The position numbers were made by a program, and so were the translations under genes. Shown piece after piece: positions 10,776 through 34,541 of a stretch of DNA of 64,000 nucleotides (the first letter of the stretch is position 1; each line of letters opens with the position of its first letter). The notes beneath the pieces were generated by a model that saw only the letters and a list, made by a program, of their open reading frames with translations, had not been told where the DNA came from and searched no databases. The stretch covers positions 1,674,001-1,738,000 of the forward strand of contig JAUFOQ010000013.1 of assembly GCA_040285855.1 (NCBI GenBank), read 5' to 3'. This stretch comes from Eukaryota sp. GEM-RC1. Taxonomy: Eukaryota.

Positions 10776-11636
10776 TTAAAAAGACATTCTATTTTTGTGT
10801 AGTGATTTTAACGACTGTTGTGTTTGACTGTTGATTGAGTTGTTATCTAGATAAATCGTAGTAACTGAAGAATTCACCTTCAAAGCTTCAGCAATTGCAA
10901 TAGCTCCTTCACTACCAATTGAGTTGTTACCTAGAGAAATCTCAGAAACTGAAGAATTCACCTTCAAAGCTTCAGCAATTGCAATAGCTCCTTCACTACC
11001 AATTGAGTTGTTACCTAGAGAAATCGTAGAAACTGAAGAATTCACCTTCAAAGCTTCAGCAATTGCAATAGCTCCTTCACTACCAATTGAGTTGTTACCT
11101 AGAGAAATCGTAGAAACTGAAGAATTCACCTTCAAAGCTTCAGCAATTGTAATAGCTCCTTCATTACCAATTGAGTTGTTATCTAGATAAATCGTAGAAA
11201 CTGAAGAATTCACCTTCAAAGCTTCAGCAATTGCAATAGCTCCTTCAGGACCAATTGAGTTGTTATCTAGATAAATCGTAGTAACTGAAGAATTCACCTT
11301 CAAAGCTTCAGCAATTGCAATAGCTCCTTCAGGACCAATTGAGTTGTGCCTTAGATAAATCCTAGAAACTGAAGAATTCACCTTCAAAGCTTCAGCAATT
11401 GCAATAGCTCCTTCATTACCAATTGAGTTGTTATCTAGATGGATCGTAGAAACTGAAGAATTCACCTTCAAAGCTTCAGCAATTGCAATAGCTCCTTCAT
11501 TACCAATTGAGTTGTTATCTAGATGGATCGTAGAAACTGAAGAATTCACCTTCAAAGCTTCAGCAATTGCAATTGCTCCTTCAGGACCAATTGAGTTGTT
11601 ATATAGATTGATCGTAGAAACCTCATTTCTCACCAT
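10776..11636 (-). CDS. LRR-only cassette, 10 modules
   Basis: Intact ORF of 286 aa = 6 + 10x28, ending KNRMSF. Confidence 0.7.
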   Translation of the reverse strand: MVRNEVSTINLYNNSIGPEGAIAIAEALKVNSSVSTIHLDNNSIGNEGAIAIAEALKVNSSVSTIHLDNNSIGNEGAIAIAEALKVNSSVSRIYLRHNSIGPEGAIAIAEALKVNSSVTTIYLDNNSIGPEGAIAIAEALKVNSSVSTIYLDNNSIGNEGAITIAEALKVNSSVSTISLGNNSIGSEGAIAIAEALKVNSSVSTISLGNNSIGSEGAIAIAEALKVNSSVSEISLGNNSIGSEGAIAIAEALKVNSSVTTIYLDNNSINSQTQQSLKSLHKNRMSF

Positions 11637-11992
11637 TTCATCTCAACAATTGTAATAATGAAACTGTATGTTGGTAATTCGATGGTAAATGTATACTATA
11701 AATTAACAATATTTCAGATACTAATAAATCTCTGTTGTTGTTGAGAACAATAGCAAGAGCACCAGTAAATAACGTGTGTTATTCACGAGGGTACTTAAAA
11801 TGTGTACCTGAACATCTGCTAAACTACTATGATATTTGACTCTGTAGCGGAGTTTTGTTTGGGATAATGTTTGTTCTGAGCAAAATGATTTTTCAAGTGT
11901 GCATTACATTCATCGTTTAATTATGGTGCTTTTGATGAGAAATTAATTATGATTAATGACAAATGTGATTTTTATAAACAATGAAAACTTGT

Positions 11993-12939
11993 TTAAAAAA
12001 GACATTCTATTTTTGTGTAGTGATTTTAACGACTGTTGTGTTTGACTGTTGATTGAGTTGTTATCTAGATAAATCGTAGTAATTGAAGAATTCACCTTCA
12101 ACGCTTCAGCAATTGCAATAGCTCCTTCATTACCAATTGAGTTGTGCCTTAGATAAATCCTAGAAACTGAAGAATTCACCTTCAAAGCTTCAGCAATTGC
12201 AATAGCTCCTTCATTACCAATTGAGTTGTGCCTTAGATAAATCCTAGAAACTGAAGAATTCACCTTCAAAGCTTCAGCAATTGCAATAGCTCCTTCACTA
12301 CCAATTGAGTTGTTACCTAGAGAAATCTCAGAAACTGAAGAATTCACCTTCAAAGATTCAGCAATTGCAATAGCTCCATCACTACCAATTGAGTTGTTAC
12401 CTAGAGAAATCGTAGAAACTGAAGAATTCACCTTCAAAGCTTCAGCAATTGCAATAGCTCCTTCACTACCAATTGAGTTGTTATCTAGATAAATCGTAGT
12501 AACTGAAGAATTCACCTTCAAAGCTTCAGCAATTGCAATAGCTCCTTCAGGACCAATTGAGTTGTTATCTAGATAAATCGTAGTAACTGAAGAATTCACC
12601 TTCAAAGCTTCAGCAATTGCAATAGCTCCTTCAGGACCAATTGAGTTGTGCCTTAGATAAATCCTAGAAACTGAAAAAATTCACATTCAAAGCTTCAGCA
12701 ATTGCAATAGCTCCTTCATTACCAATTGAGTTGTTATCTAGATGGATCGTAGAAACTGAAGAATTCACCTTCAAAGCTTCAGCAATTGCAATAGCTCCTT
12801 CATTACCAATTGAGTTGTTATCTAGATGGATCGTAGAAACTGAAGAATTCACCTTCAAAGCTTCAGCAATTGCAATTGCTCCTTCAGGACCAATTGAGTT
12901 GTTATATAGATTGATCGTAGAAACCTCATTTCTCACCAT
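11993..12939 (-). pseudogene. LRR-only cassette, 11 modules, frameshifted
   Basis: Frameshift at ~12675 (GAAAAAATTCACATT versus consensus GAAGAATTCACCTT), plus an extra A in the terminal homopolymer. Confidence 0.7.
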
Positions 12940-13245
12940 TTCATCTCAACAATTGTAATAATGAAACTGTATGTTGGTAATTCGATGGTAAATGTATACT
13001 ATAAATTAACAATATTTCAGATACTAATAAATCTCTGTTGTTGTTGAGAACAATAGCAAGAGCACCAGTAAATAACGTGTGTTATTCACGAGGGTACTTA
13101 AAATGTGTACCTGAACATCTGCTAAACTACTATGATATTTGACTCTGTAGCGGAGTTTTGTTTGGGATAATGTTTGTTCTGAGCAAAATGATTTTTCAAG
13201 TGTGCATTACATTCATCGTTTAATTATGGTGCTTTTGATGAGAAA

Positions 13246-14157
13246 TTAATTATGATTAATGACAAATGTGATTTTTATAAACAATGAAAACTTGTTTAAA
13301 AAAGACATTCTATTTTTGTGTAGTGATTTTAACGACTGTTGTGTTTGACTGTTGATTGAGTTGTTATCTAGATAAATCGTAGTAATTGAAGAATTCACCT
13401 TCAACGCTTCAGCAATTGCAATAGCTCCTTCATTACCAATTGAGTTGTGCCTTAGATAAATCCTAGAAACTGAAGAATTCACCTTCAAAGCTTCAGCAAT
13501 TGCAATAGCTCCTTCACTACCAATTGAGTTGTTACCTAGAGAAATCTCAGAAACTGAAGAATTCACCTTCAAAGCTTCAGCAATTGCAATAGCTCCTTCA
13601 CTACCAATTGAGTTGTTACCTAGAGAAATCGTAGAAACTGAAGAATTCACCTTCAAAGCTTCAGCAATTGCAATAGCTCCTTCAGGACCAATTGAGTTGT
13701 TATCTAGATAAATCGTAGTAACTGAAGAATTCACCTTCAAAGCTTCAGCAATTGCAATAGCTCCTTCAGGACCAATTGAGTTGTTATCTAGATAAATCGT
13801 AGTAACTGAAGAATTCACCTTCAAAGCTTCAGCAATTGCAATAGCTCCTTCAGGACCAATTGAGTTGTGCCTTAGATAAATCCTAGAAACTGAAGAATTC
13901 ACCTTCAAAGCTTCAGCAATTGCAATAGCTCCTTCATTACCAATTAAGTTGTTATCTAGATGGATCGTAGAAACTGAAGAATTCACCTTCAAAGCTTCAG
14001 CAATTGCAATAGCTCCTTCATTACCAATTGAGTTGTTATCTAGATGGATCGTAGAAACTGAAGAATTCACCTTCAAAGCTTCAGCAATTGCAATTGCTCC
14101 TTCAGGACCAATTGAGTTGTTATATAGATTGATCGTAGAAACCTCATTTCTCACCAT
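13246..14157 (-). CDS. LRR-only cassette, 10 modules (C-terminus extended 17 aa by a homopolymer +1)
   Basis: 303-aa ORF; TTTAAAAAAGAC here versus TTTAAAAAGAC in sister copies. Confidence 0.65.
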   Translation of the reverse strand: MVRNEVSTINLYNNSIGPEGAIAIAEALKVNSSVSTIHLDNNSIGNEGAIAIAEALKVNSSVSTIHLDNNLIGNEGAIAIAEALKVNSSVSRIYLRHNSIGPEGAIAIAEALKVNSSVTTIYLDNNSIGPEGAIAIAEALKVNSSVTTIYLDNNSIGPEGAIAIAEALKVNSSVSTISLGNNSIGSEGAIAIAEALKVNSSVSEISLGNNSIGSEGAIAIAEALKVNSSVSRIYLRHNSIGNEGAIAIAEALKVNSSITTIYLDNNSINSQTQQSLKSLHKNRMSFLNKFSLFIKITFVINHN

Positions 14158-14513
14158 TTCATCTCAACAATTGTAATAATGAAACTGTATGTTGGTAATT
14201 CGATGGTAAATGTATACTATAAATTAACAATATTTCAGATACTAATAAATCTCTGTTGTTGTTGAGAACAATAGCAAGAGCACCAGTAAATAACGTGTGT
14301 TATTCACGAGGGTACTTAAAATGTGTACCTGAACATCTGCTAAACTACTATGATATTTGACTCTGTAGCGGAGTTTTGTTTGGGATAATGTTTGTTCTGA
14401 GCAAAATGATTTTTCAAGTGTGCATTACATTCATCGTTTAATTATGGTGCTTTTGATGAGAAATTAATTATGATTAATGACAAATGTGATTTTTATAAAC
14501 AATGAAAACTTGT

Positions 14514-15794
14514 TTAAAAAGACATTCTATTTTTGTGTAGTGATTTTAACGACTGTTGTGTTTGACTGTTGATTGAGTTGTTATCTAGATAAATCGTAGT
14601 AATTGAAGAATTCACCTTCAAAGCTTCAGCAATTGCAATAGCTCCTTCACTACCAATTGAGTTGTGCCTTAGATAAATCTCAGAAACTGAAGAATTCACC
14701 TTCAAAGCTTCAGCAATTGCAATAGCTCCTTCACTACCAATTGAGTTGTTACCTAGAGAAATCGTAGTAACTGAAGAATTCACCTTCAAAGCTTCAGCAA
14801 TTGCAATAGCTCCTTCATTACCAATTGAGTTGTGCCTTAGATAAATCCTAGAAACTGAAGAATTCACCTTCAAAGCTTCAGCAATTGCAATAGCTCCTTC
14901 ACTACCAATTGAGTTGTTACCTAGAGAAATCGTAGAAACTGAAGAATTCACCTTCAAAGCTTCAGCAATTGCAATAGCTCCTTCAGGACCAATTGAGTTT
15001 TCAGCTAGATAAATCTCAGAAACTGAAGAATTCACCTTCAAAGCTTCAGCAATTGCAATAGCTCCTTCATTACCAATTGAGTTGTTATCTAGATCGATCC
15101 TAGAAACTGAAGAATTCACCTTCAAAGCTTCAGCAATTGCAATAGCTCCTTCACTACCAATTGAGTTGTTACCTAGAGAAATCGTAGAAACTGAAGAATT
15201 CACCTTCAAAGCTTCAGCAATTGTAATAGCTCCTTCATTACCAATTGAGTTGTTATCTAGATAAATCGTAGAAACTGAAGAATTCACCTTCAAAGCTTCA
15301 GCAATTGCAATAGCTCCTTCAGGACCAATTGAGTTGTTATCTAGATAAATCGTAGTAACTGAAGAATTCACCTTCAAAGCTTCAGCAATTGCAATAGCTC
15401 CTTCATTACCAATTGAGTTGTGCCTTAGATAAATCCTAGAAACTGAAGAATTCACCTTCAAAGCTTCAGCAATTGCAATAGCTCCTTCATTACCAATTGA
15501 GTTGTGCCTTAGATAAATCCTAGAAACTGAAGAATTCACCTTCAAAGCTTCAGCAATTGCAATAGCTCCTTCACTACCAATTGAGTTGTTACCTAGAGAA
15601 ATCTCAGAAACTGAAGAATTCACCTTCAAAGCTTCAGCAATTGCAATAGCTCCTTCACTACCAATTGAGTTGTTACCTAGAGAAATCGTAGAAACTGAAG
15701 AATTCACCTTCAAAGCTTCAGCAATTGCAATTGCTCCTTCAGGACCAATTGAGTTGTTATATAGATTGATCGTAGAAACCTCATTTCTCACCAT
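14514..15794 (-). CDS. LRR-only cassette, 15 modules
   Basis: Intact ORF of 426 aa = 6 + 15x28. Confidence 0.7.
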   Translation of the reverse strand: MVRNEVSTINLYNNSIGPEGAIAIAEALKVNSSVSTISLGNNSIGSEGAIAIAEALKVNSSVSEISLGNNSIGSEGAIAIAEALKVNSSVSRIYLRHNSIGNEGAIAIAEALKVNSSVSRIYLRHNSIGNEGAIAIAEALKVNSSVTTIYLDNNSIGPEGAIAIAEALKVNSSVSTIYLDNNSIGNEGAITIAEALKVNSSVSTISLGNNSIGSEGAIAIAEALKVNSSVSRIDLDNNSIGNEGAIAIAEALKVNSSVSEIYLAENSIGPEGAIAIAEALKVNSSVSTISLGNNSIGSEGAIAIAEALKVNSSVSRIYLRHNSIGNEGAIAIAEALKVNSSVTTISLGNNSIGSEGAIAIAEALKVNSSVSEIYLRHNSIGSEGAIAIAEALKVNSSITTIYLDNNSINSQTQQSLKSLHKNRMSF

Positions 15795-16150
15795 TTCATC
15801 TCAACAATTGTAATAATGAAACTGTATGTTGGTAATTCGATGGTAAATGTATACTATAAATTAACAATATTTCAGATACTAATAAATCTCTGTTGTTGTT
15901 GAGAACAATAGCAAGAGCACCAGTAAATAACGTGTGTTATTCACGAGGGTACTTAAAATGTGTACCTGAACATCTGCTAAACTACTATGATATTTGACTC
16001 TGTAGCGGAGTTTTGTTTGGGATAATGTTTGTTCTGAGCAAAATGATTTTTCAAGTGTGCATTACATTCATCGTTTAATTATGGTGCTTTTGATGAGAAA
16101 TTAATTATGATTAATGACAAATGTGATTTTTATAAACAATGAAAACTTGT

Positions 16151-17179
16151 TTAAAAAGACATTCTATTTTTGTGTAGTGATTTTAACGACTGTTGTGTTT
16201 GACTGTTGATTGAGTTGTTATCTAGATAAATCGTAGTAATTGAAGAATTCACCTTCAAAGCTTCAGCAATTGCAATAGCTCCTTCATTACCAATTGAGTT
16301 GTGCCTTAGATAAATCCTAGAAACTGAAGAATTCACCTTCAAAGCTTCAGCAATTGCAATAGCTCCTTCATTACCAATTGAGTTGTGCCTTAGATAAATC
16401 CTAGAAACTGAAGAATTCACCTTCAAAGCTTCAGCAATTGCAATAGCTCCTTCACTACCAATTGAGTTGTTACCTAGAGAAATCTCAGAAACTGAAGAAT
16501 TCACCTTCAAAGCTTCAGCAATTGCAATAGCTCCTTCACTACCAATTGAGTTGTTACCTAGAAAAATCTCAGAAACTGAAGAATTCACCTTCAAAGCTTC
16601 AGCAATTGCAATAGCTCCTTCACTACCAATTGAGTTGTTACCTAGAGAAATCGTAGAAACTGAAGAATTCACCTTCAAAGCTTCAGCAATTGTAATAGCT
16701 CCTTCATTACCAATTGAGTTGTTATCTAGATAAATCGTAGAAACTGAAGAATTCACCTTCAAAGCTTCAGCAATTGCAATAGCTCCTTCAGGACCAATTG
16801 AGTTGTTATCTAGATAAATCGTAGTAACTGAAGAATTCACCTTCAAAGCTTCAGCAATTGCAATAGCTCCTTCAGGACCAATTGAGTTGTGCCTTAGATA
16901 AATCCTAGAAACTGAAGAATTCACCTTCAAAGCTTCAGCAATTGCAATAGCTCCTTCATTACCAATTGAGTTGTTATCTAGATGGATCGTAGAAACTGAA
17001 GAATTCACCTTCAAAGCTTCAGCAATTGCAATAGCTCCTTCATTACCAATTGAGTTGTTATCTAGATGGATCGTAGAAACTGAAGAATTCACCTTCAAAG
17101 CTTCAGCAATTGCAATAGCTCCTTCAGGACCAATTGAGTTGTTATATAGATTGATCGTAGAAACCTCATTTCTCACCAT
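16151..17179 (-). CDS. LRR-only cassette, 12 modules
   Basis: Intact ORF of 342 aa = 6 + 12x28. Confidence 0.7.
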   Translation of the reverse strand: MVRNEVSTINLYNNSIGPEGAIAIAEALKVNSSVSTIHLDNNSIGNEGAIAIAEALKVNSSVSTIHLDNNSIGNEGAIAIAEALKVNSSVSRIYLRHNSIGPEGAIAIAEALKVNSSVTTIYLDNNSIGPEGAIAIAEALKVNSSVSTIYLDNNSIGNEGAITIAEALKVNSSVSTISLGNNSIGSEGAIAIAEALKVNSSVSEIFLGNNSIGSEGAIAIAEALKVNSSVSEISLGNNSIGSEGAIAIAEALKVNSSVSRIYLRHNSIGNEGAIAIAEALKVNSSVSRIYLRHNSIGNEGAIAIAEALKVNSSITTIYLDNNSINSQTQQSLKSLHKNRMSF

Positions 17180-17485
17180 TTCATCTCAACAATTGTAATA
17201 ATGAAACTGTATGTTGGTAATTCGATGGTAAATGTATACTATAAATTAACAATATTTCAGATACTAATAAATCTCTGTTGTTGTTGAGAACAATAGCAAG
17301 AGCACCAGTAAATAACGTGTGTTATTCACGAGGGTACTTAAAATGTGTACCTGAACATCTGCTAAACTACTATGATATTTGACTCTGTAGCGGAGTTTTG
17401 TTTGGGATAATGTTTGTTCTGAGCAAAATGATTTTTCAAGTGTGCATTACATTCATCGTTTAATTATGGTGCTTTTGATGAGAAA

Positions 17486-17809
17486 TTAATTATGATTAAT
17501 GACAAATGTGATTTTTATAAACAATGAAAACTTGTTTAAAAAAGACATTCTATTTTTGTGTAGTGATTTTAACGACTGTTGTGTTTGACTGTTGATTGAG
17601 TTGTTATCTAGATAAATCGTAGTAACTGAAGAATTCACCTTCAAAGCTTCAGCAATTGCAATAGCTCCTTCATTACCAATTGAGTTGTTATCTAGATGGA
17701 TCGTAGAAACTAAAGAATTCACCTTCAAAGCTTCAGCAATTGCAATTGCTCCTTCAGGACCAATTGAGTTGTTATATAGATTGATCGTAGAAACCTCATT
17801 TCTCACCAT
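17486..17809 (-). CDS. LRR-only cassette, 3 modules
   Basis: Short ORF with the same start and C-terminal cap as its sisters. Confidence 0.55.
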   Translation of the reverse strand: MVRNEVSTINLYNNSIGPEGAIAIAEALKVNSLVSTIHLDNNSIGNEGAIAIAEALKVNSSVTTIYLDNNSINSQTQQSLKSLHKNRMSFLNKFSLFIKITFVINHN

Positions 17810-18115
17810 TTCATCTCAACAATTGTAATAATGAAACTGTATGTTGGTAATTCGATGGTAAATGTATACTATAAATTAACAATATTTCAGATACTAATAA
17901 ATCTCTGTTGTTGTTGAGAACAATAGCAAGAGCACCAGTAAATAACGTGTGTTATTCACGAGGGTACTTAAAATGTGTACCTGAACATCTGCTAAACTAC
18001 TATGATATTTGACTCTGTAGCGGAGTTTTGTTTGGGATAATGTTTGTTCTGAGCAAAATGATTTTTCAAGTGTGCATTACATTCATCGTTTAATTATGGT
18101 GCTTTTGATGAGAAA

Positions 18116-20122
18116 TTAATTATGATTAATGACAAATGTGATTTTTATAAACAATGAAAACTTGTTTAAAAAAGACATTCTATTTTTGTGTAGTGATTTT
18201 AACGACTGTTGTGTTTGACTGTTGATTGAGTTGTTATCTAGATAAATCGTAGTAATTGAAGAATTCACCTTCAAAGCTTCAGCAATTGCAATAGCTCCTT
18301 CACTACCAATTGAGTTGTGCCTTAGATAAATCTCAGAAACTGAAGAATTCACCTTCAAAGCTTCAGCAATTGCAATAGCTCCTTCACTACCAATTGAGTT
18401 GTTACCTAGAGAAATCGTAGTAACTGAAGAATTCACCTTCAAAGCTTCAGCAATTGCAATAGCTCCTTCATTACCAATTGAGTTGTGCCTTAGATAAATC
18501 CTAGAAACTGAAGAATTCACCTTCAAAGCTTCAGCAATTGCAATAGCTCCTTCACTACCAATTGAGTTGTTACCTAGAGAAATCGTAGAAACTGAAGAAT
18601 TCACCTTCAAAGCTTCAGCAATTGCAATAGCTCCTTCAGGACCAATTGAGTTGTTATCTAGATCGATCCTAGAAACTGAAGAATTCACCTTCAAAGCTTC
18701 AGCAATTGCAATAGCTCCTTCACTACCAATTGAGTTGTTACCTAGAGAAATCGTAGAAACTGAAGAATTCACCTTCAAAGCTTCAGCAATTGTAATAGCT
18801 CCTTCATTACCAATTGAGTTGTTATCTAGATAAATCGTAGAAACTGAAGAATTCACCTTCAAAGCTTCAGCAATTGCAATAGCTCCTTCAGGACCAATTG
18901 AGTTGTTATCTAGATAAATCGTAGTAACTGAAGAATTCACCTTCAAAGCTTCAGCAATTGCAATAGCTCCTTCAGGACCAATTGAGTTGTGCCTTAGATA
19001 AATCCTAGAAACTGAAGAATTCACCTTCAAAGCTTCAGCAATTGCAATAGCTCCTTCATTACCAATTGAGTTGTTATCTAGATCGATCCTAGAAACCTCA
19101 TTTCTCACCATTTCATCATAACAATTCTTCAACTTCGAACTAAGCTTGCTCCAATCAATAACAAGCTCCTTCTCTTCAACTTGTTGTACAAGGCACGCAC
19201 TTTCAATAGACTTGATTGGCGAAGGAGTGTCATCTAGAAGCCTAGCAGAAGCAACATTGGACTCCGAAACAACGGAAAGAGAGGCCAAACGACGAGAAGC
19301 TTCGGAGTGAATAGAGCAAAGTTCTTCATTTAAAGAGGAGATGATAGCGGATTGGTTGTTAAGTAGGGTGGAAGTTGTGGTAATGAAGTTTTCGCCGATC
19401 TTTGGTTTAAAGATAACAGGCTTACCTGATTTTAAGTCATTCATGATGGTAACAGAGTCTAACATAGTTTCTTGCAGCATATCAGTTAGAGTTTCTTTCA
19501 TTTGAGCAAATCCAGATGCCGCTTGTTGGAGAGCATTTTCTGTACACTTTCCGACGGTTTCTACAGCAACAGCTAGTTCTTGATTGATGGCATTAATGCC
19601 ATGTTCTACAGCAGATCTTCCTTCGTCAAACGGAAGCAAATTCTTCTTGTGCTGGTCGTGGTCCCCAAGGATAGCACAAATTGAGCAAAGCGCAACAGAA
19701 CAAGAAGTACAGAAGAGGTCAAAGGATTTGGACGGATGGATCGGACATTTAGGCACAATGGAGGCGTGTTTCTTTTGCAGCGGAATTGCAACGTGGGTAC
19801 GTAAGAGTTTCGGCCGATGAATGTCCTTAAAACATTGGTCGCATAAATCAGCGTCACATTCTGCGCAATAACAAGTGGCAACAGCTTCATCACACTCAAT
19901 ACAAATAGACTCACCCTGACCAGCAACGAAGGCTTCAACAGCTTCTTTCAACTTGTAGTTAGGACACAGCCTTGACTTGTCCACTTCAGCTCTACAAATT
20001 GGACATCCGTCATGAGAAACAAGCCACTCCTGTAAATCCGACATACAAAAGGTGTGGCCACACCAAGTAGTTACCGGATTCTTGAGAATTTCATGACATA
20101 TATCACATAGATAGTGAGACAT
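18116..20122 (-). CDS. TRIM-like protein: RING, B-box, B-box, coiled coil, 11 LRR modules (putative E3 ubiquitin ligase)
   Basis: RING CDICHEILKNPVTTWCGHTFC...CPICR; B-box1 CIECDE..ATCYCAECDADLCDQCFKDIH...H; B-box2 CPIHP...LFCTSCSVALCSICAILGDHDQH; then a helical segment and LRRs. The true stop may be at ~18165 if the A-run is one base too long. Confidence 0.92.
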   Translation of the reverse strand: MSHYLCDICHEILKNPVTTWCGHTFCMSDLQEWLVSHDGCPICRAEVDKSRLCPNYKLKEAVEAFVAGQGESICIECDEAVATCYCAECDADLCDQCFKDIHRPKLLRTHVAIPLQKKHASIVPKCPIHPSKSFDLFCTSCSVALCSICAILGDHDQHKKNLLPFDEGRSAVEHGINAINQELAVAVETVGKCTENALQQAASGFAQMKETLTDMLQETMLDSVTIMNDLKSGKPVIFKPKIGENFITTTSTLLNNQSAIISSLNEELCSIHSEASRRLASLSVVSESNVASARLLDDTPSPIKSIESACLVQQVEEKELVIDWSKLSSKLKNCYDEMVRNEVSRIDLDNNSIGNEGAIAIAEALKVNSSVSRIYLRHNSIGPEGAIAIAEALKVNSSVTTIYLDNNSIGPEGAIAIAEALKVNSSVSTIYLDNNSIGNEGAITIAEALKVNSSVSTISLGNNSIGSEGAIAIAEALKVNSSVSRIDLDNNSIGPEGAIAIAEALKVNSSVSTISLGNNSIGSEGAIAIAEALKVNSSVSRIYLRHNSIGNEGAIAIAEALKVNSSVTTISLGNNSIGSEGAIAIAEALKVNSSVSEIYLRHNSIGSEGAIAIAEALKVNSSITTIYLDNNSINSQTQQSLKSLHKNRMSFLNKFSLFIKITFVINHN

Positions 20123-20735
20123 TTTAAGGAGAAAATTGAACTTGGACTTCAGATTTCATTGTGGAAAACTAAATTCATTTTGTCGCACGACAATTTTTTT
20201 CTCCTTTCAGGTACTTTCTCAACCTCTTCAAACAGTTAAACTACCATTTATAAGCCGACTTCAATACCTGATCTTTGCAAAATTTCCATATACCCGATCT
20301 AGCTTAACCGGGATCATGCGTTTTTTCTTTTTGACATCCAGAAAGAGTAAAGAACAGAGAGTTTTGTTGTTGGAATGTTGCTGTTCTTAGGCAGCAAAAG
20401 AAACAAAGGCTATACTTAAGACATGAGCTTACTCTTTTCATCACAAAGCATCTGTTCTTTTCGTTATCCTCTTGTGACTACGATTTTAGGTGTGGCTGTA
20501 GTTGTTGAATAAATTACCCTATCTTTTGGTATACCTCTTGTAGTTTCTCTCCTTTAAGAACGACCTTCTCTAAGAGTGTTAATGCTACTATTGTCGTGCC
20601 ACTGGTTTGAAAGGGTTCTTCTCTTCACATCACATATTCTACGTATTACGATCTCAGAACATGTTCTCTGGATTTGTCTCTTTCAACATCTGTTAGATTC
20701 TCAATTTCCCCGGTTTCTGTTTCAGTTACTGAAAT

Positions 20736-21221
20736 CAGTGTTGCACGAAACGTTTTCCTATCCCACGTTTCCGTTTCCGAAACGTTTAAGAAACGTTAAT
20801 GACTCCAAGGAAACGCATCCGAAACCTCACTAAATGGTTCCAAAACTTGATGATTACCGGTAATGTCTTACGTATGTCTTAAGTATGTTCCATTCATTGT
20901 ACTTTCTTGGTATTTATATGAATGTTACCAATAAAATTGGATGTACAGTAGCAAACCACTGAAACGAAAACACTTGCCGGCATAGCTGTAGTTTTTGATC
21001 CAATTCTCTCTCTAAATTTCATAACATCGGGTACAATCCATAACAACATGTATGACATCTGCTCATACAAAATAACTGGTAAAAATCTATTATCCCAGTC
21101 AAATGGAATTTTTTCGAAGATAAATTGTTGGTGGAGAAAAATAGGGACGCAGAACCATAAATGACGTTTCGGAAACGGAAACGCGTTTCCATATGAATTT
21201 CACACGTTTCATGCAACACTA
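20736..21221. mobile_element. hAT-like non-autonomous element
   Basis: Ends CAGTGTTGCACGAAACG and CGTTTCATGCAACACTA. Subterminal CGTTTCCGTTTCCGAAACG and CGTTTCGGAAACGGAAACG are inverted copies. No clear TSD. Confidence 0.7.
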
Positions 21222-23799
21222 CCAAATTTGTAATCCTGTTTGGCAGACTATCTTCTTCTTCAGTAACTCTCCGTTGCTTCCTATATAGTCTGATGCTTGT
21301 AACTATATCATCCTTTCTCCAAACACTTATAATTTACTTCCTCAATGTGACTACGATCATGTATTATCTGAAGCAAAGTTTGAGGTACCTTAAAATCTCT
21401 ACTACATCCTATCTAAAACCTGTGTTTCTCCTATCGCTTCGTCACCAAGCATGGGTCGGTTAAAATCGTTTTTTTTTTCGATTCTTCTCCATTACCTTGG
21501 GTTATATCGCACAAAGTAAATAGAATGTGTTATTTGTTTTTCAGCCAAGTTTTGGAGTATAACTACATCTACTGGTGAAGCAGTGTCACAACTACAGCCC
21601 TTTTCTCAATGTTTCACAATCAAGAAACTAATGTTTCTCTGATAAGTCAGTCATTGATTTAAGTGAAATCATCAATGTTCAACAGGCCTTTGACTTTTGT
21701 GGCTTTATATTGTCTGATGAAGATTTCCTGAATGGTATTAGTCCAATTCAGGTAAACGGTTTGGTAAACTTCATTTTAAGTAATGATTCTATAGAGTTTG
21801 AGGATCTTTTGAATATTATTGGAGTACTATCGGTTCCAAAATCTAAATCATTCTAATTGCTATCCATCAACATTCATTTGGTTATGTTGGGTGTTTGCAT
21901 TCATTTTGAAACTGAGTTGGAAAGTATTACCCAAGCTTCTCGGAGCGAATATTTTTTAATAGTACATGTAGATTCTTTTAAATTATTATAGGTATATTTA
22001 TTGTTATGGTCACGACTCATGGTTCAAATGAGTAGAAAGGATAATCAACAGTTTCTTCAGTTCAATTTCTTCTATTTTTATAGATATTGAGGGCATATAT
22101 GTGTACTGCGTGGGATGTCGACGTAAGATGGAAAACGAAAATCCATTAATTTGTTAATGATTGGACATATTGATTAGTCCGGCATTTACTTTGAAAATAT
22201 GATCTCGAACAAACTGGTGGATGTAAATGGGAGATTTTTGTTTCAAGAGAGTTATAGATTTCTAAAAAGCTCAATTATCATCTGAATTTCAGGTTTTTAT
22301 GAACATGTAGAAAATTTCACGATGTGATACAAAAACACAAAATCTTGTTGAAATGACGCACAGATATCAGAAGTTTCAGCATGTAATTGTATTAACTTGG
22401 GTCGTCGGAGTAGGTGGGTTTTAATATTTACAATATTATTAAAAATAATAAATTTAATATCTATGATATTATGTGACATATGATGAGTGAAGTCTGCAAT
22501 CCATTAAAGCTGAATACGATGTATAATGAAAGCAGCAGGCATTATATCATAGTAGCAGCTCTGGACAACATACTCCCTGTATGTATAGCGAGGATTTACT
22601 CGATGATGAAGCAAAAGTATGCGTCACTCCATTTGACTCCCACAGCCAGTTATCAGACATAACTGGCTGTATGATAGCCAGCAACATACAATCCCTCAAA
22701 GTAACAGAGGTCGTCCACAACGTACTCAACAAAAGGTAAGGTGGTTTTAAAATGTCCCAAGTATAGCCTCCACCTAAGAAATGTCTGTTTTCATGTTGCA
22801 ACAATGCATATCATCTTCTTATCATCTTCTTTATACTTAAGTAGACGTATACGTTCACTGCGGTCCTTGATAAAAACTGTTACATTTTCACTACCTCATG
22901 CATCGCCTACGTTTTTGGAGCTGCTTTCTCCTTCCCTTTTGAAAGAAAATGTAAGCATCTTCGTTTCTCCAGTATTGTTGTAGTTATAGCGTTGTGTAAT
23001 TTCATATTAGGTTTTTATCTTCCCCCTTACATCTATAGAGGTTCTTCTCCGTATAAAGGTTCTCCTCTTTATAGTATGTCCCATTATAGTGCACAAAGAC
23101 CAATAGTATAATATATTTCTTGTCATCCGTGAAGTTTGCTCCTTAATTTTTTCATTTGATTCCCTCTTGATCTCTTCAGAACAATGTATATTTCGCTACG
23201 TAGACCTTTCAATGACACTTGTCAATCTCTCTTAGTTACTTCAACTGTTGTCGAGTTGATTATTCAAATAGCTCCTCTTATTGACTCAGCAATTGCTCTT
23301 GCAGAAGTATTTTATTGCAATACTTCAATGAAAACAGTTACTCTGTCTGTGACTCCCGGTTTTATCGTTATGCTATTATTCTCTTTTCACCACTTTCAAC
23401 TAATTCAATGTTAAACTCAATTGATTTATCTAATTTTAAATAGTTCAAGTATTGAAAGTTTTTTGTTTCCAGGTTGTTGTGGTTTTTTTCTACAATATTT
23501 GATAGTCTGAAGGAGCAGTCATATCTTAATGGAATTTTTTTTTGAAAATTTTAGCTTCAATAGTGCACATCTCACGGAGTTTTAAAATTCAATGATTTTT
23601 TGAAAATGATAACTTCAACGAAATGCTCCTCCGATTTTTAATTCTCTGGAATCTTATGCTTCCTTGTCAAAATTACTTCTTAAGCCGAACAAGTATCTCA
23701 ACAACCAAGAACTCGAGTCCTTAGGTCAAACGTTGCAAATACTTGTTCATCTGTTCTAAACTTTCACGACATATTTATTAGTTCATTTCAGACTCAGCA

Positions 23800-24300
23800 T
23801 TACCCAATCCCAATAGTAACTTGCAGATGTTGCAAAGCTTGTTCAATATCTATTTTAGCTCCTAATCCTTCAAAATATTTAGAAGCCTCTTGAAAATGTA
23901 ACCCCATGATCATTCTAGAAAGCACATCCCAAAGAATGTATAGCTTCCGCATTCCCCACGTGTGTAGCCACTGGTAGATAATTGAAACCTTTTTCAATAG
24001 CCGTTGTAACTCCTAGTTCTTTAGAACTACAATGATAAAGAATATAAAATACTTCATAATAACCGAATTCTGTGGTTTTTTGGAATCACAACAGAGTGTC
24101 ATTTAGACTTTCACCGACTCTGCAAGAAACAATCTCCCAAATTAATACATTTCCCATATCAGCAGCTCTTGCAAAATTCTCTTCGACTCCTAAACTTGAA
24201 CAATAGCAATTTGCTAATTTAAAAATAGAATCAAACGTGATTGTGATTAGCACCTTCATTAAACAAGGTAAAAGCTTTTTCATAATTCGCAGTCACCAAT
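23800..24300 (-). pseudogene. Degenerate Sel1-repeat gene fragments
   Basis: SIFKLANCYCSSLGVEENFARAADMGN and SKYFEGLGAKIDIEQALQHL; broken by stops and frameshifts. Confidence 0.55.
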
Positions 24301-27300
24301 TTTCTATGGAATAACGGCAGTCCTCCTAGATACAGTTGAATATCAATTTTGAGCTCTTTTTCACGTGATGAGCAGAAGTCAAAAGAAGTCTTTGCAGCAA
24401 TGTAACTCATATAAGCCCCAAGATTAGTATATTTACGGATTTCTTATCAAAATTTAAAAACTGCATTAGATTCGAATCAAGTTTCTCCATGATCAATGAA
24501 AATTAAAATTTGAAAAGGTCCATAACAGATTCTTTGGAAAAAGCGTTGCCAAGAAGAAAGTCTAGCTAAGCCAATTTCAATCGGTCATACTTGGAAGTAC
24601 ATATCCAATTGAAAAACTCTAAAATGTTTGAAATATCAAATTCAACACAGTTTTGTTAGTGAAAAAGACCAAAAAATCGATCCAAAAACATTTTCAAATA
24701 TACCCAAAAATTGATTAGAACATTCAAGACAAATTGGATGTCAAATCGACAAATTGACAAATAAATGCAGATGTAAACAAGTACCAAAAATGAATCAACT
24801 AATCAAACTTCAATTTTATATACGTGTTTTTAAAAGACACCCACCCGTATTTAGGGCAAGATTCTAAAATTTAAAATTAACTGTTTTGGATACATTTCAA
24901 TTTGTTTCACAAGCCTTCTGTCATTCTCTCAGTGACAAACTCACTTGCTGGAACTGAAGAAGAGAAGGAATGATGCAAAGCATACTGACATTTTCAGGAG
25001 TAAAGAGTTGACAGGACTGAAAAGAAGATATCATTTAGAAGATGGGCAGAAATGTACTAAGTTGATGTCAGATAGGTATTTTTGTACCCAAACCCTAAAT
25101 TATATTATATTTGCCTGATAACATTCCACATAATTTGAAATGCCAATGTGGGCAATCAGTAATACATACACATTTATTAAATTGCAACCGTTTTATTTCT
25201 TTTAGATGCAAGGTTCATGATTCAGTAAGGGATCAATTATATTGTGTGTGTGATCTTTAGTAAACTAACAGATGAACAAATTTTAATTTTCTAAGTTTTC
25301 AATGATTGCAAAGGATTCATCTTGATATCCGTGATCCCACTGATTTCTGGCTTTTTAATTTTTGAATTGCGTTTAAAAAACTGTTTAAACTGTTCTTTGT
25401 TCCTCATAAAGATATCCTCCGTCAATTCCAACAGAAAAGCAAACACACCAGACATACCAGCTACAGTACCAAGAACTGTCCCTGCTAAGGTCATAAAGGT
25501 ACGTGATGCAGACCTATCAGTCATTAATGCTAAAGAGAATGAATGGAACTGAAACTCCACTTTAAAACCAGTAGCGTGGTGGAATTGAGTGTTAGAGACA
25601 ACAGAACCTGCAGAAGCAGATTCAAATCGAAGGTGATATCCTGTATTAGAATTGGAGGGTTCAACATTGTCAGTGAAGACAGAAGGAATTAACTCGTATG
25701 AAAACACACTAGGATTATTCCCTTTCAAAACCATATTCTGAGGAGCACTCACTGAAGAAGAGATGTTAGAGAAGGCGTTAGGAAGTGAAGCAAATGTTGA
25801 AATGTTAACAGCGACTGCATTGGCGTACGATGCTTCGTTGTTTGATTGGATAGAAAGTGAACTGATTGAGTTAGTTAACTGACAATCAAAATCAACTGAA
25901 ATGAGACACGAATCAACAGAAGTTCCATCACCTATTGATGACGTGATGGTTGCCGGACAATCCACACCATTAGTTTGCAGAACAAACGACTCATTGGAAC
26001 AACCAGTTGAATATCCTTGAAATTCTATAACAAAGAAACCATGAAAAGTAAAGTTTTTGGGTGTTAAAAAAGCTGGTTCTAAAGTTCGAGTATAAGAAAT
26101 ATTGTCATATTGATATTCGAAAAACAAACTGCTTGTCATGAATAGAAGTCCTGCTATAAATAACCATGAATAAAATCCTCCTAGTTTAGTTTCTCGTTGG
26201 ATAATTGGTTGGTTGTTTTCGGTATAATGACTTTGATTAAAAAAAATCAAAATATCTAAAGAATGGTCCTTCACTTATGAAAACGGAAGCAATAATTAAC
26301 AGCGTCACAGCCAGAATCAGCAAATACAGAGCAATTGTTGAATATTCTTCTAGTTTTGCTAGTTGAGACGGTGGAAGTTCGGGTTGTTCTGAAATAAAAT
26401 CTACCGTTGCATCCTCGCTTGAAAGTGGAACAACACTTCCAACAGGGCAATACTTATCCTCTGGGCATGGTTCACAGTGAGAAGAACCATAGTTAGGATT
26501 ATAAGTAGAGAAAGGACATGGGATGCATGACTCAAATCCATTTCCACCAATGAAATCACTGAAAAAACCAGGATCACAAGGTCTGCAACTAGTGCCATTG
26601 CTTGAATAAACACCATAAAGCCCATTCTCACAGGCAACGCAACCTCCAAGCTCATCAGCAGCACTACCAATAAAGCAATCAAATTCGCAATCAATAATCA
26701 GAAAATCAGAACAGGTCAGATTCATGATTGCAATTGCTGATAAAGGAGATGCTGGTGATCGCTCCCTGGGGATATGAGAATTACCAACATACCTCACAAC
26801 TAAGTTTTGAAATGCAACTACGGTATAATCAGTATCAGTAAAGAAATCATTATCATTAATGATTCCAAACGTGATACGGGAATCTTCAGTTTCCAATTTG
26901 GGAATACTGAAGAAATTTGTGATCCTAGGGATAAACTCTCTATCATGACCACCAAAAATTAAAATGTTATTACCGAACTGAATTAAGTTGAAGGTGTGTA
27001 CCTGGTTTCGGAATCTAAAAGGTTGGTAAAACCATCTTTTTGATTAGAACCATCACGTGTTAAGCTATCAGGAGATATTTTCCATAGGTAGGTTTGATTG
27101 ACGTTGCGTGAATCATCCCGACCCCCAATCAGCATGACGTATGGATCATCAGTTTGGGCAACTAGAAGAGAACACCGATCCATTGGAGGAGGCCAGACTT
27201 CCTCTGACGTTTGAGAGATTTGAGTCCACCTGCCGGTCTGAAGATTGAGTGAGTAGAGCTCAGAAGAACGTGACGAAGCAGTGGCACCTCCGTAAACTAT

Positions 27301-28677
27301 TAAAGAATGTTCATACAATGAACAACAAGCATAAGAACGAGGACTTGGAGGTGATCCTTCAGTGACAAACCAAGTAAACTCTCGTGACACGTGGTAAAAA
27401 AAAGATGACGTCATTGGTGAGATCAGAAGTTGAAACAGTTTCCCCTCCAAATTGAACAATTCTAGTACCATATACAACGCTACAATGACCAACACGGAGT
27501 GGTGGTGCATAAGAGCTTTGAACTTCTAGATAATTCCAAGAATACGTCATCAAGTCAAAATGATAGACATTCATATCACGTATATCACGAGAAAACGGAC
27601 GACTTCCTCCAAGTACAAACATCTTTGTTCCAACTACAACTGATGAGTGACCAAATGTCCTTGGCGGAGTCGTTATTGAAGGAGATACAAGGTTAAAGTC
27701 AGCATAGGTAGGTGTCATATCTAACAATTCAGGATCGAACTCCAAAATAGAATTCTCTACTTGATCAAAGTAATCACCACCAAACAGATACAGTTTATCA
27801 TTGATAACAAACGGAGTAGAACTAGAGTCCAGTCTAAACATTGAACCATCTCTTCTCATTCTAAGCTGATCCCATGTCCAAGTTGAGATGTTGTTGTCAT
27901 TAGTTGAAAGAACTTGTAGGATAGCAAAGTTAGCAACAAAGGGGTAAGTTGTAGCTATACCCCAACCTCCAAAGATGAGAAGCTTTTGATTAATGAAAAG
28001 TAAGAATCTGAAATTCTTGTTGGTGCACCCGTAATTATGTCAGTTATATTTTCATAAAGAGAATATACTGAAAGTAAACTGTCATTTAACAAGTCAATCT
28101 CTACTGTTGCAATCCAGGTATGAAAATCATAACTAACTACCAAAGCTCTCAGAGTAAACACGTGTGGTGACGTTTCAACCATGGACTGTACCACCATGTT
28201 TGCACCTTTGCGTCCCACTTCTAGTTCAATGTCTGATAGAGTCTTGACTTCATAAAAAGTAAGAGTTTCAAAGTCAAACAGCCATAAAGCTGAGGTAGGT
28301 GTAGGTATATAAGGGGAAGTAAGAGCAGGAAGTGTAAGCACGAGAGCAAACTCGTGATCATTCAAAGAGAACTGGAAACAAGAAAGTAAAGCACGCAGAG
28401 GAAGTTGTTGGCCTTGTGGAGGGGTAGATCGCCAACAAAGAGACTCGAAACTCCAGATATAGATATCAGTAGAAGGAGCGTTGTTCAGTTCTCCACCGAA
28501 TTGAATTATTTGAGACTTATAGTGCCACAGACAACCTCCAGAAGGTGGTAATGTACCAGCAGAGGGATATTGAAGCCAGAACTTAGAGCTCTCGGTTCAA
28601 GGAATTAAAGACCAGTCTGGTGAAGAAACCATAATTCAAAGAGATCGTCATCATGTTGGTCAATGCCACCCCAGAAG

Positions 28678-29685
28678 CAGGGATGAGGTAAAAATTATTC
28701 CAGTGAGAAATAATTCCCGTATTATATACGGGATTACGGTACGGCTTCTCTTTTTGTTACGGGAGTACGGACAGAAAATATTTTCCGTAATTTTCTCAGT
28801 CTTCTAAATCAAGGGAAAAATCCGGACGCTCCAGCTGACCAGGATCTGAAGACTACATCAACAACAATGCATTGCTAGAAAATTACATCTGCATCTTGAA
28901 TATATTCTTGCTGGAAACAAAGGTTGTTCAACGTCTGTTCAGTATTGCAAAACACCGCTTGGGTTCGTTTAGAAACAGGTTAACTCCTGAACCACTGGCA
29001 ATGGAACTGTTTCTCAGATCGAATAAAAAGTTGTGGGATGAAGAAGTTCTTCGTAAAGCTTTGACTCTGAAACCAATAATAGAAGTACATATAACTGATT
29101 AATAGTAATAAACAGTTTATTGATGGAGGCTACAAAAATACATATAATTATAACAGCTATGAAACTCTAGCCACCCAAAATTCCTGGTCAACAGTACCAC
29201 AGTTTTAATACCACTTTGTGACAATTGAATTAAAAACTTGGGCATCGAACGGAACAAAGAAACAACCAAACGGTTATGCCAAATTGATAAGTTAAATCTC
29301 TTATTCTGAGACTTACACATAGATCCGAAATCAGTTAAAAACTTAGAAACCATTTCACTAATGCTACCAAAAATCGAAATAGCAAGCGGAACAAATACAA
29401 ATTTTGAATAGAAATTTTGATTGAGTTTAGCATTATTATTTATTTTTGGAATACAAATGATTTTTACTTTTTGGCTGTTTCTAGGTGGTTCAAACCTTTG
29501 AATTTAAGCCATTAACTTAATTGATTAATAGTGATCCTTTGTATCAATTTAATATAGTTTTGTCATCCTTTGTTTAGTAAATGTACGGAAAGAATATATT
29601 CACCGTATATTCCACAGTACGGAATAATTTACGGCAAGACAAAAACAGAGTCCGTATTACGGCCATATATTCTACCCCATCCCTG
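28678..29685 (+). mobile_element. hAT (Ac-like) internally deleted element
   Basis: Termini CAGGGATG...CATCCCTG. Imperfect 8-bp TSD CCCAGAAG/ACTAGAAG. Subterminal TACGG/CCGTA motifs. Remnant of the hAT C-terminal dimerisation domain VQRLFSIAKHRLGSFRNRLTPEPLAMELFLRSNKKLW (28920-29040). Confidence 0.85.
29110..29430 (-). mobile_element. LINE 3' fragment nested in the hAT element
   Basis: FVPLAISIFGS...KSQNKRFNLSIWHNRLVVSLFRS; homologous to 49300-49700 on the plus strand. Confidence 0.6.
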
Positions 29686-30652
29686 ACTAGAAGGCAACAA
29701 GGTTCAAGACATGTAAATCGATATGTTTCTGTACCTTATCAATAACGTGTTTTGTTTTTCAGATAGTCTACACAATAAATATCCAATACTGGGTCACTTA
29801 GTTAATTTTACATAATTTAAGATGTACAAAAAGCAGTTTTGTGTTTTGACACAAAGACAAAAACTTTGTATTGACAACAACACTACAGTGTACATACATC
29901 TAATAATCAATATCCTCAAATCCCAGATTACCTATCTGGAAGTTCTGGTCTACTTTGGAAAACCCAAATCGTAATTAACATGTCTATAAACTCTCTCTTC
30001 AGAAATTAATTGTGTATTTCCTAAAACAATTCTGAACATTAGATTTAAAAAGGCACAATCGTAATTTCAATCACATATACTTGGCTATGTAGAAACCGCA
30101 AAAACTAATTTAGCACCACTAGGTCTTCGTAAATTTAACATCGTCATATGTGTTTCTTCTATTGACTGCAATATTCAATTCAACAATTTTGGTAACTCTT
30201 TGTGTATCACTATCAGTTTTACTGACTGAATGCAAAAGCACGTTTATGAAACATCACTGAGAATAAGTAAAGCATCATATTTTGCATATGATAGACAATG
30301 CAGTCGTGATAATAATGAAACTGTACATTGGTAATTCGATGGTAAATGTATAGTAGAAATTAACAATACTTCGAATACTAATAAATTTCTGTTGCTGTTG
30401 AGAACAATAGCAAAAGTACCAGTAAATAACGTGTGTTATTCACCAGGGTAGTATTTAAAATCTGTACTTGAACATCTGCTAAACTACTATGATATTTGAC
30501 TCTGTCACGGAGTTTTGTTTGGGATAACGTTTGTTCTGAGCTAAATGATTTCTCAAGTGTGCATTACATTCACAGTTTAATTATGGTGCTTTTGATGAGA
30601 AATTAATTATGATTAATGGAAAATGTGATTTTTATATGTAATGAAAACTTGT

Positions 30653-31261
30653 TTAAAAATACATTCTATTTTTGTGTAGTGATTTTAACGACTGTTGTGT
30701 TTGACTGTTGATTGAGTTTTCAGCTAGATCGATCCTAGAAACTGAAGAATTCACCTTCAACGCTTCAGCAATTGCAATAGCTCCTTCATTACCAATTGAG
30801 TTTTCAGCAAGATCGATCCTAGAAACTGAAGAATTCACCTTCAAAGCTTCAGCAATTGCAATAGCTCCTTCATTACCAATTGAGTTGACACCTAGATAAA
30901 TCTCAGAAACTGAAGAATTCACCTTCAAAGCTTCAGCAATTGCAATAGCTCCTTCATTACCAATTGAGTTGTTATTTAGATAAATCGTAGAAACTGAAGA
31001 ATTCACCTTCAAAGCTTCAGCAATTGCAATAGCCCCTTCATTACCAATTGAGTTGTTATCTAGATAAATCGTAGAAACTGAAAAATTCACCTTCAAAGCT
31101 TCAGCAATCGCAATAGCTTCTTCAACACCAATTGAGTTGAAACCTAGATGAATCGTAGAAACTGAATAATTTACCTTCAAAGCTTCAGCCATTGCAATAG
31201 CTCCTTCAGTACCAATTGAGTTGTTATATAGATTGATCGTAGAACTCTCATTTCTCAACAT
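30653..31261 (-). CDS. Dispersed, more diverged LRR-only cassette, 7 modules
   Basis: 202 aa = 6 + 7x28. Flanks 29724-30650 and 31262-31345 match the array spacers. Confidence 0.7.
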   Translation of the reverse strand: MLRNESSTINLYNNSIGTEGAIAMAEALKVNYSVSTIHLGFNSIGVEEAIAIAEALKVNFSVSTIYLDNNSIGNEGAIAIAEALKVNSSVSTIYLNNNSIGNEGAIAIAEALKVNSSVSEIYLGVNSIGNEGAIAIAEALKVNSSVSRIDLAENSIGNEGAIAIAEALKVNSSVSRIDLAENSINSQTQQSLKSLHKNRMYF

Positions 31262-31344
31262 TTCGTCTCAACAATTTTAATAATGAAACTGTACATAGGT
31301 AATTCGATGGTAAATGTACAGTATCATTTAACAATAATTCTGAT

Positions 31345-32918
31345 ATACTCACTTATGGGTTACTCCTTCAGAATTTCTTGAACTCCTGGCTAGCCACACA
31401 GACCTTTTCTGTGGTGAATAGCCCTAATCTTTCGCAGTGGTTTACTTGCCGTTCTCGTCAGTTGGCAGTTAATGTTAAGTCGTCTCTGCCCAAAATATCC
31501 AGAGCTTGGATTAAAAATTTTCTATATGCCCATTGTCGGGTCATTGAGACACCTCGTCAATTTTCTTCGCATCTTCTTTATCTCTTTTATAATATTCCAT
31601 TTAATGCTCCTTCTTTTGTTAATGTTTCCATTGACAATCAGTCTGAAAAAATCTTTTTACTTAACGCTGTCTACTTTATTTTCCATCTTTTCGATCGTTG
31701 TCCTGTCTCGGAAGGACTTTTATCTTCTGCTGACCACATGAATGTTTCTCCTAAAGAAATTCGTGAATTGTTTATCTTTAACCTATCAATTGCACAATTC
31801 TTAGAAACATATTTAAGTGATTTTTCCCATTGTTGGAGACGGCTCCGACTGATCCCCCTAGCTTCTCACAAAGGGTCAAAACTGTTGGATGTACCTCCAA
31901 ACATCTTCAGAAGCAATGGAAGATTCCCTCCAGCTACAGGCACTAGGGCTAATCGATTTTTCATTTTGAACCAGAATTTGAAGAAAATTTTCAAAAATTG
32001 TCCACATGAAAAATTCAAAATGTGGAAGAAAAGTTATAAAAGAAACTAAAGAAAGTTAGCTCTCAAGTCAAATGGAAATGAGCTTTTGATCACATTTGAA
32101 TGGACTGAGCCAACCTTGGAGAAAGAAGGAGAGCCGCCAAAAAAAAAGAGGCGGACAAAACTTGAGATGCAGCAAGATCCTAAAGCCAACTGCATCAAAT
32201 CCATCAATTTAAAAGGATCGAAGAAGCAGCCTCGCCGTCGCCCTCCAACTGCCCAGGAGATTATCCCTGAAGGCCCATTAGTGGGTGTGGATCTTGGTCA
32301 GTCACGTCTTTGTGGTTACTATTTGAATGAAGAAAACCACGGACTGATCAAGTGTCCTACAGGCCGCCAGTTTCGAACAAACCCTTCTCCTCTCAAAATG
32401 TCACCGAACCAATATTCCGTGCAAAATATTCACCTATGTTTGAATCACTGGAATTTGGTAAGAAAACAGGTGTATAAAGAGAGTAACCGGTCGAAGTGGA
32501 AGTCGATTAAGTTCGACAATCGAAGACGCAGAGAACGCCGCTTTCGTGAAGCTCTGAATACTTTCCAAGAGATTTCTGGTCATCCAGAGGAACTGTATCT
32601 GGCTGTTGGCTCAGCAAACTTTCCTTCCCATTTCAGGAAAGTTAAAAGATATGGATCAGCTCGATGCTTTCGGAAATGGCTGAATCACCAAAAGGAGTAA
32701 AACACTTTCCCACCAGTGAATTCAACACTAGCAAACTGTCAAGCTGCTGTATGTCACTAAACGAAGCAACCAGATAGTGGCAAATGAGAGTCTGTGCCAA
32801 CTGCCATCAAGTATATGACAGAGATGTTTTCGCTGCTAAAAATATTCAGACTAGGAAGAAAGCAGAGTTGTGGCCTGGAAGATACGTCTGTCCTGAGGTA
32901 ATGTCGAGGAGAGTCTAA
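31345..32918 (+). pseudogene. Fanzor (eukaryotic TnpB-like RNA-guided endonuclease), probably Fanzor1; 5'-truncated with two stops and one frameshift
   Basis: ORFs 31378 and 32086 are in the same frame, separated by TAA at 32047. RuvC-I LVGVDLGQ, then LYLAVGSANF. After a shift at ~32690: FPTSEFNTSKLSSCC (RuvC-II E, 32718), TAG at 32775, RVCANCHQVYDRDVFAAKNI (Cys pair plus RuvC-III D, 32823), stop at 32916-18. LRLIPL and LKSNGNELLITF match the recalled Fanzor1 LxP and TDG-like motifs. Confidence 0.85.
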
Positions 32919-32919
32919 T

Positions 32920-33217
32920 GGAGAGATCGGTAGAAATGATAAACAAAACCACTTTGAGACCGATCTGGTGATGTATCTATCCCGGTAGATATGTTTGTCA
33001 GATCCATTTAGATAGATTAAGTCTAAGAAACTTTGTTCTGTGTAAGCAGTGTAAGCTGTGTAAGCAGTCGGTCTATCTAAGTGATGTAGCCCGTTGATGA
33101 AGATCATGATTGTCTTTGTCAGATGACGCTATATGTCTCTTACAACCTGTGAAAACAGGAGTGAATTTCATAATTGGGAGTACTACTAGTAGTAAGCAGT
33201 TGTTATGAAATTCACAG
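32920..33217 (+). ncRNA. Candidate Fanzor omegaRNA scaffold / element right end
   Basis: Consecutive stems: 32924-31/32959-66; 32971-80/32985-94; 33005-18/33070-83; CCTGT-GAAA-ACAGG at 33146-59; perfect 13 bp 33161-73/33203-15 enclosing the palindrome TACTACTAGTAGTA. Located directly 3' of the Fanzor ORF. Confidence 0.55.
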
Positions 33218-33272
33218 TACTTGATACCTGAATAGGTAGACATGCAAGGGGAAAGGATAATATATTTTATAA

Positions 33273-34481: not shown

Positions 34482-34541
34482 ATTTTATAAATGGCAACAC
34501 CATACTTCAACACTGCCACATCATAACACCTGTGGCCAACA

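Follow-up and report, generated by a model that had tools for sequence, protein, structure and literature searches.

Results

The window, by which we mean the whole 64,000-nucleotide stretch of Eukaryota sp. GEM-RC1 DNA analyzed here, contains a broken gene related to the Fanzor RNA-guided nucleases, which lies in four pieces, all collinear on one strand, as seen by tblastn and three-frame translation (Table 1). A sequence-only reading of the region had described three open reading frame (ORF) pieces, and these were seen on translation of 31200-33100. The Fanzor part of the downstream piece begins at about 31336, within a first ORF (31303-32049) that is closed by TAA at 32047-32049; a second ORF (32050-32700) contains VGVDLG; and a one-base frameshift at the A4 run 32690-32693 leads to the frame reading GVKHFPTSEFNTSKLSSCC...RVCANCHQVYDRDVFAAKNI, where an in-frame TAG at 32775-32777 precedes the terminal stop (32916-32918). 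One further codon has been lost in frame within an A9 run (32139-32147). A tblastn search of the window with the full-length relative P0012 gave an additional match at 5867-6235, about 25 kb upstream from the remainder, in which codons 1-118 are identical to P0016 at 118/118 positions and to P0012 at 115/118. The count of two stops and one frameshift given by the earlier reading stands, while its extent of the gene does not: the one-codon loss had been missed, and neither the N-terminal piece nor the split of 25 kb had been recognized, which makes the copy more broken than had been stated.

The natural proteins P0008, P0012, P0013, and P0016 span all three of the lesions recognized earlier with the sequence that had been proposed for the repaired gene, and the C-terminus predicted from restoring one A at about 32690 is that of the intact P0012 and P0016. 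Intact relatives read QKGVKHFPTSEFNTSKLSSCC across the frameshift site, and where the window copy has its two stops they encode Tyr and Trp, for which reason an intron, as well as a genetic code with TAA and TAG read as Gln, was rejected as the cause of the stops. With X placed at each break, the window copy is identical to P0012 at 623/642 residues (97.0%) and to P0023 at 371/629. Another copy, P0001, terminates at the frameshift of the window copy, reflecting either shared descent or a sequencing error repeated in that A run. Given the 25.1-kb split, the two stops, and the frameshift, the window copy is a pseudogene, unable to make the protein.

Table 1. Features of the window, with positions counted from its first nucleotide
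Feature	Position	Strand	Basis or detail
11-nt direct repeat	left 5689..5699, right 33079-33089	+	only two copies in window
Fanzor1 codons 1-118: ATG, first WED strand, start of REC	5867..6220	+	tblastn with P0012
Host-gene block splitting Fanzor	6221..31335	.	25,115 bases between codons 118 and 121
RING-B-box-LRR gene in block	18116-20155	-	
Kelch-repeat/ephrin-receptor-like gene in block	25291-28596	-	five overlapping ORFs
Fanzor1 codons 121-648: REC, WED, RuvC, TNB	31336..32918	+	translation, tblastn; amino acid coding to 32915
Dimorphic WED segment, residues 313-375 of P0012	31912..32100	+	alignment; window is type A
RuvC-I Asp D440 in GVDLG	32290..32292	+	aligned to SpuFz1 D383
Alternative RuvC-II Glu E583 in EFNTSK	32718..32720	+	alignments
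RuvC-III Asp D618 in DRD	32823..32825	+	alignments
Candidate omega-RNA scaffold, three predicted stems	32919..33089	+	folding; 3' boundary not fixed
Further structured DNA: element right end or flank	33089..33221	+	z -3.33, 0/300 shuffles
LTR retrotransposon, right of Fanzor	33222-41056	-	102-bp LTRs, TACT target duplication
Mutator-like element in left LTR, SWIM-domain fragment	33273-34481		inverted repeats of about 66-90 nt
Kinase-Sel1 repeat gene	41786-44137	-	
Glycine cleavage P-protein gene	47925-49127	+	

The block that interrupts the gene contains the flanks of ten LRR units and closes, after the kelch/ephrin-receptor-like gene, with its final LRR unit and the beginning of an eleventh (~60 nt); the GC content of the block is 0.354, against 0.41-0.44 in the Fanzor pieces. 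Between 6221 and 20155, LRR-only gene units about 90% alike are arranged in tandem and end at the RING-B-box-LRR gene, from which they seem to be derived; the product of the kelch/ephrin-receptor-like gene is probably a membrane protein. Both junctions lie within LRR-unit flank sequence, and residues E119 and W120 are absent. About 4 bases are common to both sides of the left junction, and at the right junction 10 Fanzor bases match the LRR unit at 8/10, junction positions being uncertain by a few bases. No direct or inverted repeat longer than 7 nt joins the two ends of the block, and no Helitron or terminal inverted repeat (TIR) ends were seen for it. The loss of two codons and the absence of a duplication or terminal repeat at the ends suggest capture of the block during break repair, which would have used short microhomologies. 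We think it quite unlikely that the halves are instead separate truncated copies around an ordinary host region or that the block is a large cargo transposon. Such readings draw on a multicopy family with many fragments, on the resemblance of the block to normal host DNA, and on another Fanzor fragment, P0007, that adjoins an LRR gene, but the break points complement each other with a gap of only two codons out of 648, the halves are collinear on one strand, and no repeat longer than 7 nt joins the ends of the block.

The D/E/D triad that had been proposed for the repaired frame is also present in P0012 and P0016. SpuFz1 residues are numbered with a chain offset of 394, which places D383 and recovers N385, Y345, D300, C310, Q129, and N133 as they appear in passages of PMC10432273. 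The alternative-Glu arrangement described in PMC10711439, with the Glu six residues ahead of the zinc finger, was found, E583 being followed by FNTSKL and then by the finger position, and the canonical Glu position is inert, occupied by G546 at the end of strand 541-546. The spacing of D440, T586, and R617-D618 matches the Fanzor/TnpB motif given in PMC3627910, D-X(125,275)-[TS][TS]-XX-C4 finger-X(5,50)-RD. Divergence at two motifs, DLG for DPG and SNG for TDG, had been suspected and was borne out by alignment with relatives and SpuFz1. The RuvC-I motif of Fanzors is described in PMC10711439 as "near exclusively" DPG; here it is DLG in the window copy and seven close relatives, DPG in their sister group, and DPN in a basal group. 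At the position aligned to the WED motif TDG of SpuFz1, the window copy has SNG and the clade TNG, SNG, or SDG. The zinc finger retains four Cys, but as SSCC...CxxC, the first canonical Cys being replaced throughout the clade. Since the window copy departs from both DPG and TDG, we file the gene as a Fanzor1 variant.

The assignment to Fanzor/TnpB nucleases from the RuvC motifs held, and profile and fold searches narrowed it to Fanzor1. Alignment to RuvC-TnpB/Fanzor profiles, on which the earlier reading had staked its claim, extends to nearly the full length of SpuFz1: a 10-sequence profile, which matched 21 PDB sequences at E values up to 1, had SpuFz1 as its best match (E 7e-23, profile positions 15-572 of 575) and GtFz1 as its second (3e-15), while Fanzor2, Cas12m, and TnpB matched at the C-terminus only. 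Cas12f1-like_TNB was the sole Pfam domain. The AlphaFold model was weak (pLDDT 59, pTM 0.43, WED below 50), and its fold matches had rmsd values of 11-17 A and TM scores of about 0.3. With this low-confidence query, Foldseek ranks 1-4 were all SpuFz1, and VIA aligned 417-429 residues of PpFz1 and SpuFz1 (Z 12.8, rmsd ~12 A); most Cas12f/TnpB rows aligned over ~150-220 residues, with Cas12f and CasPhi rows (~170) within 1 Z of Fanzor1. The best Atlas matches were large-virus clusters with PF26935/PF07282 (score 0.98, TM 0.61). By the profile search and the matches of this low-confidence model, REC and WED are enlarged, and the similarity is full length to Fanzor1 and not to Fanzor2.

In a tree of 39 rows, the eight DLG rows formed one group (100/100), sister to five DPG rows, and two DPN rows stood at the base of the 15-row clade (100/99); this order indicates that DLG is derived. 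The clade grouped with TDG/DPx proteins against two TnpBs in this tree, which has those two as outgroups, includes neither Fanzor2 nor a named Fanzor1, and so cannot by itself assign the clade to Fanzor1; it drew on 20 of 36 viral-like matches and carries a long-branch-join warning. Viral relatives of Nostoc TnpB, sought as outgroups, were not found. That eukaryotes independently captured a prokaryotic TnpB, from the clade combining D-hydrophobic-G with the alternative Glu, seems to us very improbable. The window copy does pair DLG with the alternative Glu, which PMC10711439 gives as the pairing of a non-Fanzor clade, and has SNG in place of TDG, and the tree included no TnpB of that type; against this stand the DPG and DPN of the sister and basal groups, the length of 648 aa with full-length matches to Fanzor1 REC and WED, and a search of 72,556 plasmids with P0045 that gave only three weak C-terminal matches (E 0.1-0.8). 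The window copy very likely descends from a Fanzor1.

A read-through query of the window copy found seven proteins, and intact relatives, which the earlier reading had thought possible elsewhere in the genome, are present in protein clusters: P0012 (648 aa) and P0016 (646 aa) are full length in an 11-member cluster, and P0023 (651 aa) is full length among the 15 members listed of an 82-member cluster. The gene is multicopy in the relatives, and the cluster listings show many of the related copies to be fragments. The P0064 cluster is a third family, of 592-aa Fanzors with a DPN motif, and has seven full-length, near-identical members among 10; it has probably spread recently. A phmmer search over 1.84 billion representatives gave 29 matches, 24 of them at E values up to 1e-10. 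All eight of these strong matches that were traced to a label (including P0005 and P0007) came from Skoliomonas isolates, three in all; six of 10 matches sampled for label were from Eukaryota sp. TZLM1-RC or TZLM3-RCL, and the four weakest (E 1e-4 to 9e-4) were one protein of Amoeboaphelidium plus three sequences of unnamed or metagenomic origin. TZLM1-RC, TZLM3-RCL, and GEM-RC are described in PMC11603281 as Skoliomonas, haloalkaliphilic metamonads among which TZLM3-RCL is deepest, and the order of the DLG, DPG, and DPN groups in the Fanzor tree agrees with the host tree given there. Among the matches traced to a label, strong matches to the lineage thus appear only in soda-lake flagellates. 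Pattern searches of metagenome contigs (43 and 586 matches) and of viral contigs (355 matches) confirmed no relative. Our literature search found no paper on Fanzor and a metamonad, although supplementary tables of Fanzor surveys could list these proteins; none among the matches listed has Fanzor and Skoliomonas together, and the main text of bioRxiv 10.1101/2023.05.03.539051 has 0 occurrences of Fanzor. These results favor the earlier suggestion of an uncharacterized lineage.

In a sister family, predicted gene models join the nuclease to another domain. In P0075 (1323 aa, TZLM3-RCL label), the domains XPG_N and XPG_I precede a Fanzor part that is 28% identical to P0012; P0070 and P0073 have the same XPG-Fanzor joint, and for P0060 and P0093, which belong to another family, the alignment continues through the joint at about 30%. 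A DVEPNPG motif, which we take to resemble a 2A ribosome-skip signal, precedes the XPG/EXO1-like part of P0075. The XPG part of P0075 had no tblastn match in the window; no paper containing both Fanzor and XPG was found, and none of the listed papers on XPG and transposons was relevant.

Comparison of the window copy with P0016 revealed a segment of the WED domain, residues 313-375, at which 22/60 sites differ, against 7/580 outside it. None of 10,000 permutations reached this clustering. Since the segment limits were chosen after inspection, we also took the maximum in any 60-residue window, which was 22 as observed and at most 12 in 10,000 permutations; no such cluster was seen against P0012 (469 of 10,000 permutations). 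Among the copies labeled GEM-RC1 and the window, where the dimorphism was scored, type A is found in the window copy, P0012, P0001, P0013, P0017, and the start of P0007, and type B in P0016, P0008, P0009, and P0011; the 15 TZLM1-RC sequences that cover the segment have a single form. PMC11423790 describes a WED segment that is variable and has a helix in contact with the TAM, and in profile alignments our segment matches residues of SpuFz1 and GtFz1 that contact the TAM. The first dimorphic site, residue 313, is aligned with GtFz1 Q278 (offset 410) in a weak stretch (E 0.067), and SpuFz1 R291 falls at about 320-322, where type B is short by two residues. The two types may, on these alignments, read different TAMs; both have identical REC residues at the positions aligned to SpuFz1 Q129/Q130/N133, so the TAM may be unchanged between them.

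Downstream from the gene, 32918-33088 folds with a z of -2.56 (4/300 shuffles as good; terminal half, z -3.25), a first fold of 32860-33100 having been not significant (z -1.55). The end of the candidate scaffold is not fixed, as the DNA at 33089-33221 folds as well. Rfam gave no match in the scaffold and, in all, one hit at chance level (E 1.3). The 11-nt direct repeat is possible but doubtful as a target-site duplication, as 25 of 2000 shuffles give an equally long match and a purine-rich block across the left copy argues against a boundary there. No terminal inverted repeat for a Fanzor element was found in the window; a short inverted repeat (31346-31355 and about 33078-33088) was rejected because its left arm falls within the coding part of the gene. 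No transposase adjoins the gene. To the right, the LTR retrotransposon has ORFs for reverse transcriptase, RNase H, and integrase whose frames are shifted, and the Mutator-like element is flanked by a 9-bp duplication, ATTTTATAA.

Discussion

Our results point, with good confidence on our part, to a decayed copy of a multicopy Fanzor1-type gene, split by host DNA and carrying two stops and a frameshift, whose intact relatives are likely RNA-guided DNA nucleases with a predicted 3' omega-RNA and a TAM probably read by REC and WED. It is highly improbable that the organism carries an unbroken gene and that the frameshift, stops, and split are assembly errors: although each of the two length changes makes an A run shorter, as long-read errors commonly do, and P0001 ends at the same frameshift, the two nonsense substitutions are not of homopolymer type, a 25-kb block that separates codon 118 from codon 121 and replaces two codons would be an unusual mis-join, and many related copies are fragmentary too.

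Under the reading of a decayed Fanzor1-type gene, and by analogy with characterized Fanzor1s (passages of PMC10432273, PMC11423790, and PMC10530073), the intact protein would bind RNA from the right end of the element, with a guide drawn from flanking DNA. The carrier would be a non-autonomous element moved in trans, as suggested by the lack of a transposase beside the gene. The nuclease would cut sites vacated by the carrier transposon, and repair would then restore it, as in the restorative-homing model of PMC13565253; by this analogy, intact copies likely cut excision sites with a flank-derived guide, and the predicted 3' RNA region of a dead copy could be usable in trans. The two versions of the WED segment would have arisen via recombination with a diverged sister family. 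More tentatively, and against our own expectation, the lineage could work by module exchange, with two WED cassettes for different TAMs on one 99%-identical backbone and omega-RNA scaffold and with the EXO1-like fusion of the sister family resecting cuts toward homing.

What gives the window copy its value is that it leads to relatives that are intact and can be tested. These extend Fanzor1-type genes to metamonad flagellates, from which they are absent in the papers searched, and indicate that the DPG fingerprint can be lost within the family, which matters for surveys based on motifs. P0012 and P0016 form a natural pair bearing on a proposal in the literature, namely that TAM specificity is set by the variable WED segment; should this hold, exchange of a 63-residue cassette would be enough to retarget a compact editor. 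The fusion to XPG/EXO1 in the sister family offers a route to how Fanzor cuts are channeled into homing-type repair.

Among known systems, Fanzor2 (ApmFz2, 9b0l) and the TnpBs of IS605/IS607 share RuvC and the TNB finger with the window lineage but are shorter and match its C-terminal third only, and neither a serine nor a HUH transposase was seen adjoining the window gene. The MCi-2 Fanzor1 elements of Mucor circinelloides, with 11-12 bp target duplications and no terminal inverted repeats (PMC3627910), recall the 11-nt repeat found here, although that repeat is perhaps due to chance and no Crypton fragment was seen beside the window gene. SpuFz1 of Spizellomyces punctatus (PDB 8gkh) is similar in length, domain order, and D/alternative E/D triad, whereas its identity with the window lineage in structural alignments is only ~12-14%, it has DPN, TDG, and CxxC where this lineage has DLG, SNG, and SSCC, and the Spu-1 element has ~30-nt inverted repeats of which none were found at the window copy. 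GtFz1 of Guillardia theta (9cer) and PpFz1 of Parasitella parasitica (9cf1) share the full-length Fanzor1 architecture and, as described in PMC11423790, a variable TAM-contacting WED segment; in those proteins the segment varies between species, whereas here its two versions occur on a 99%-identical backbone under one isolate label.
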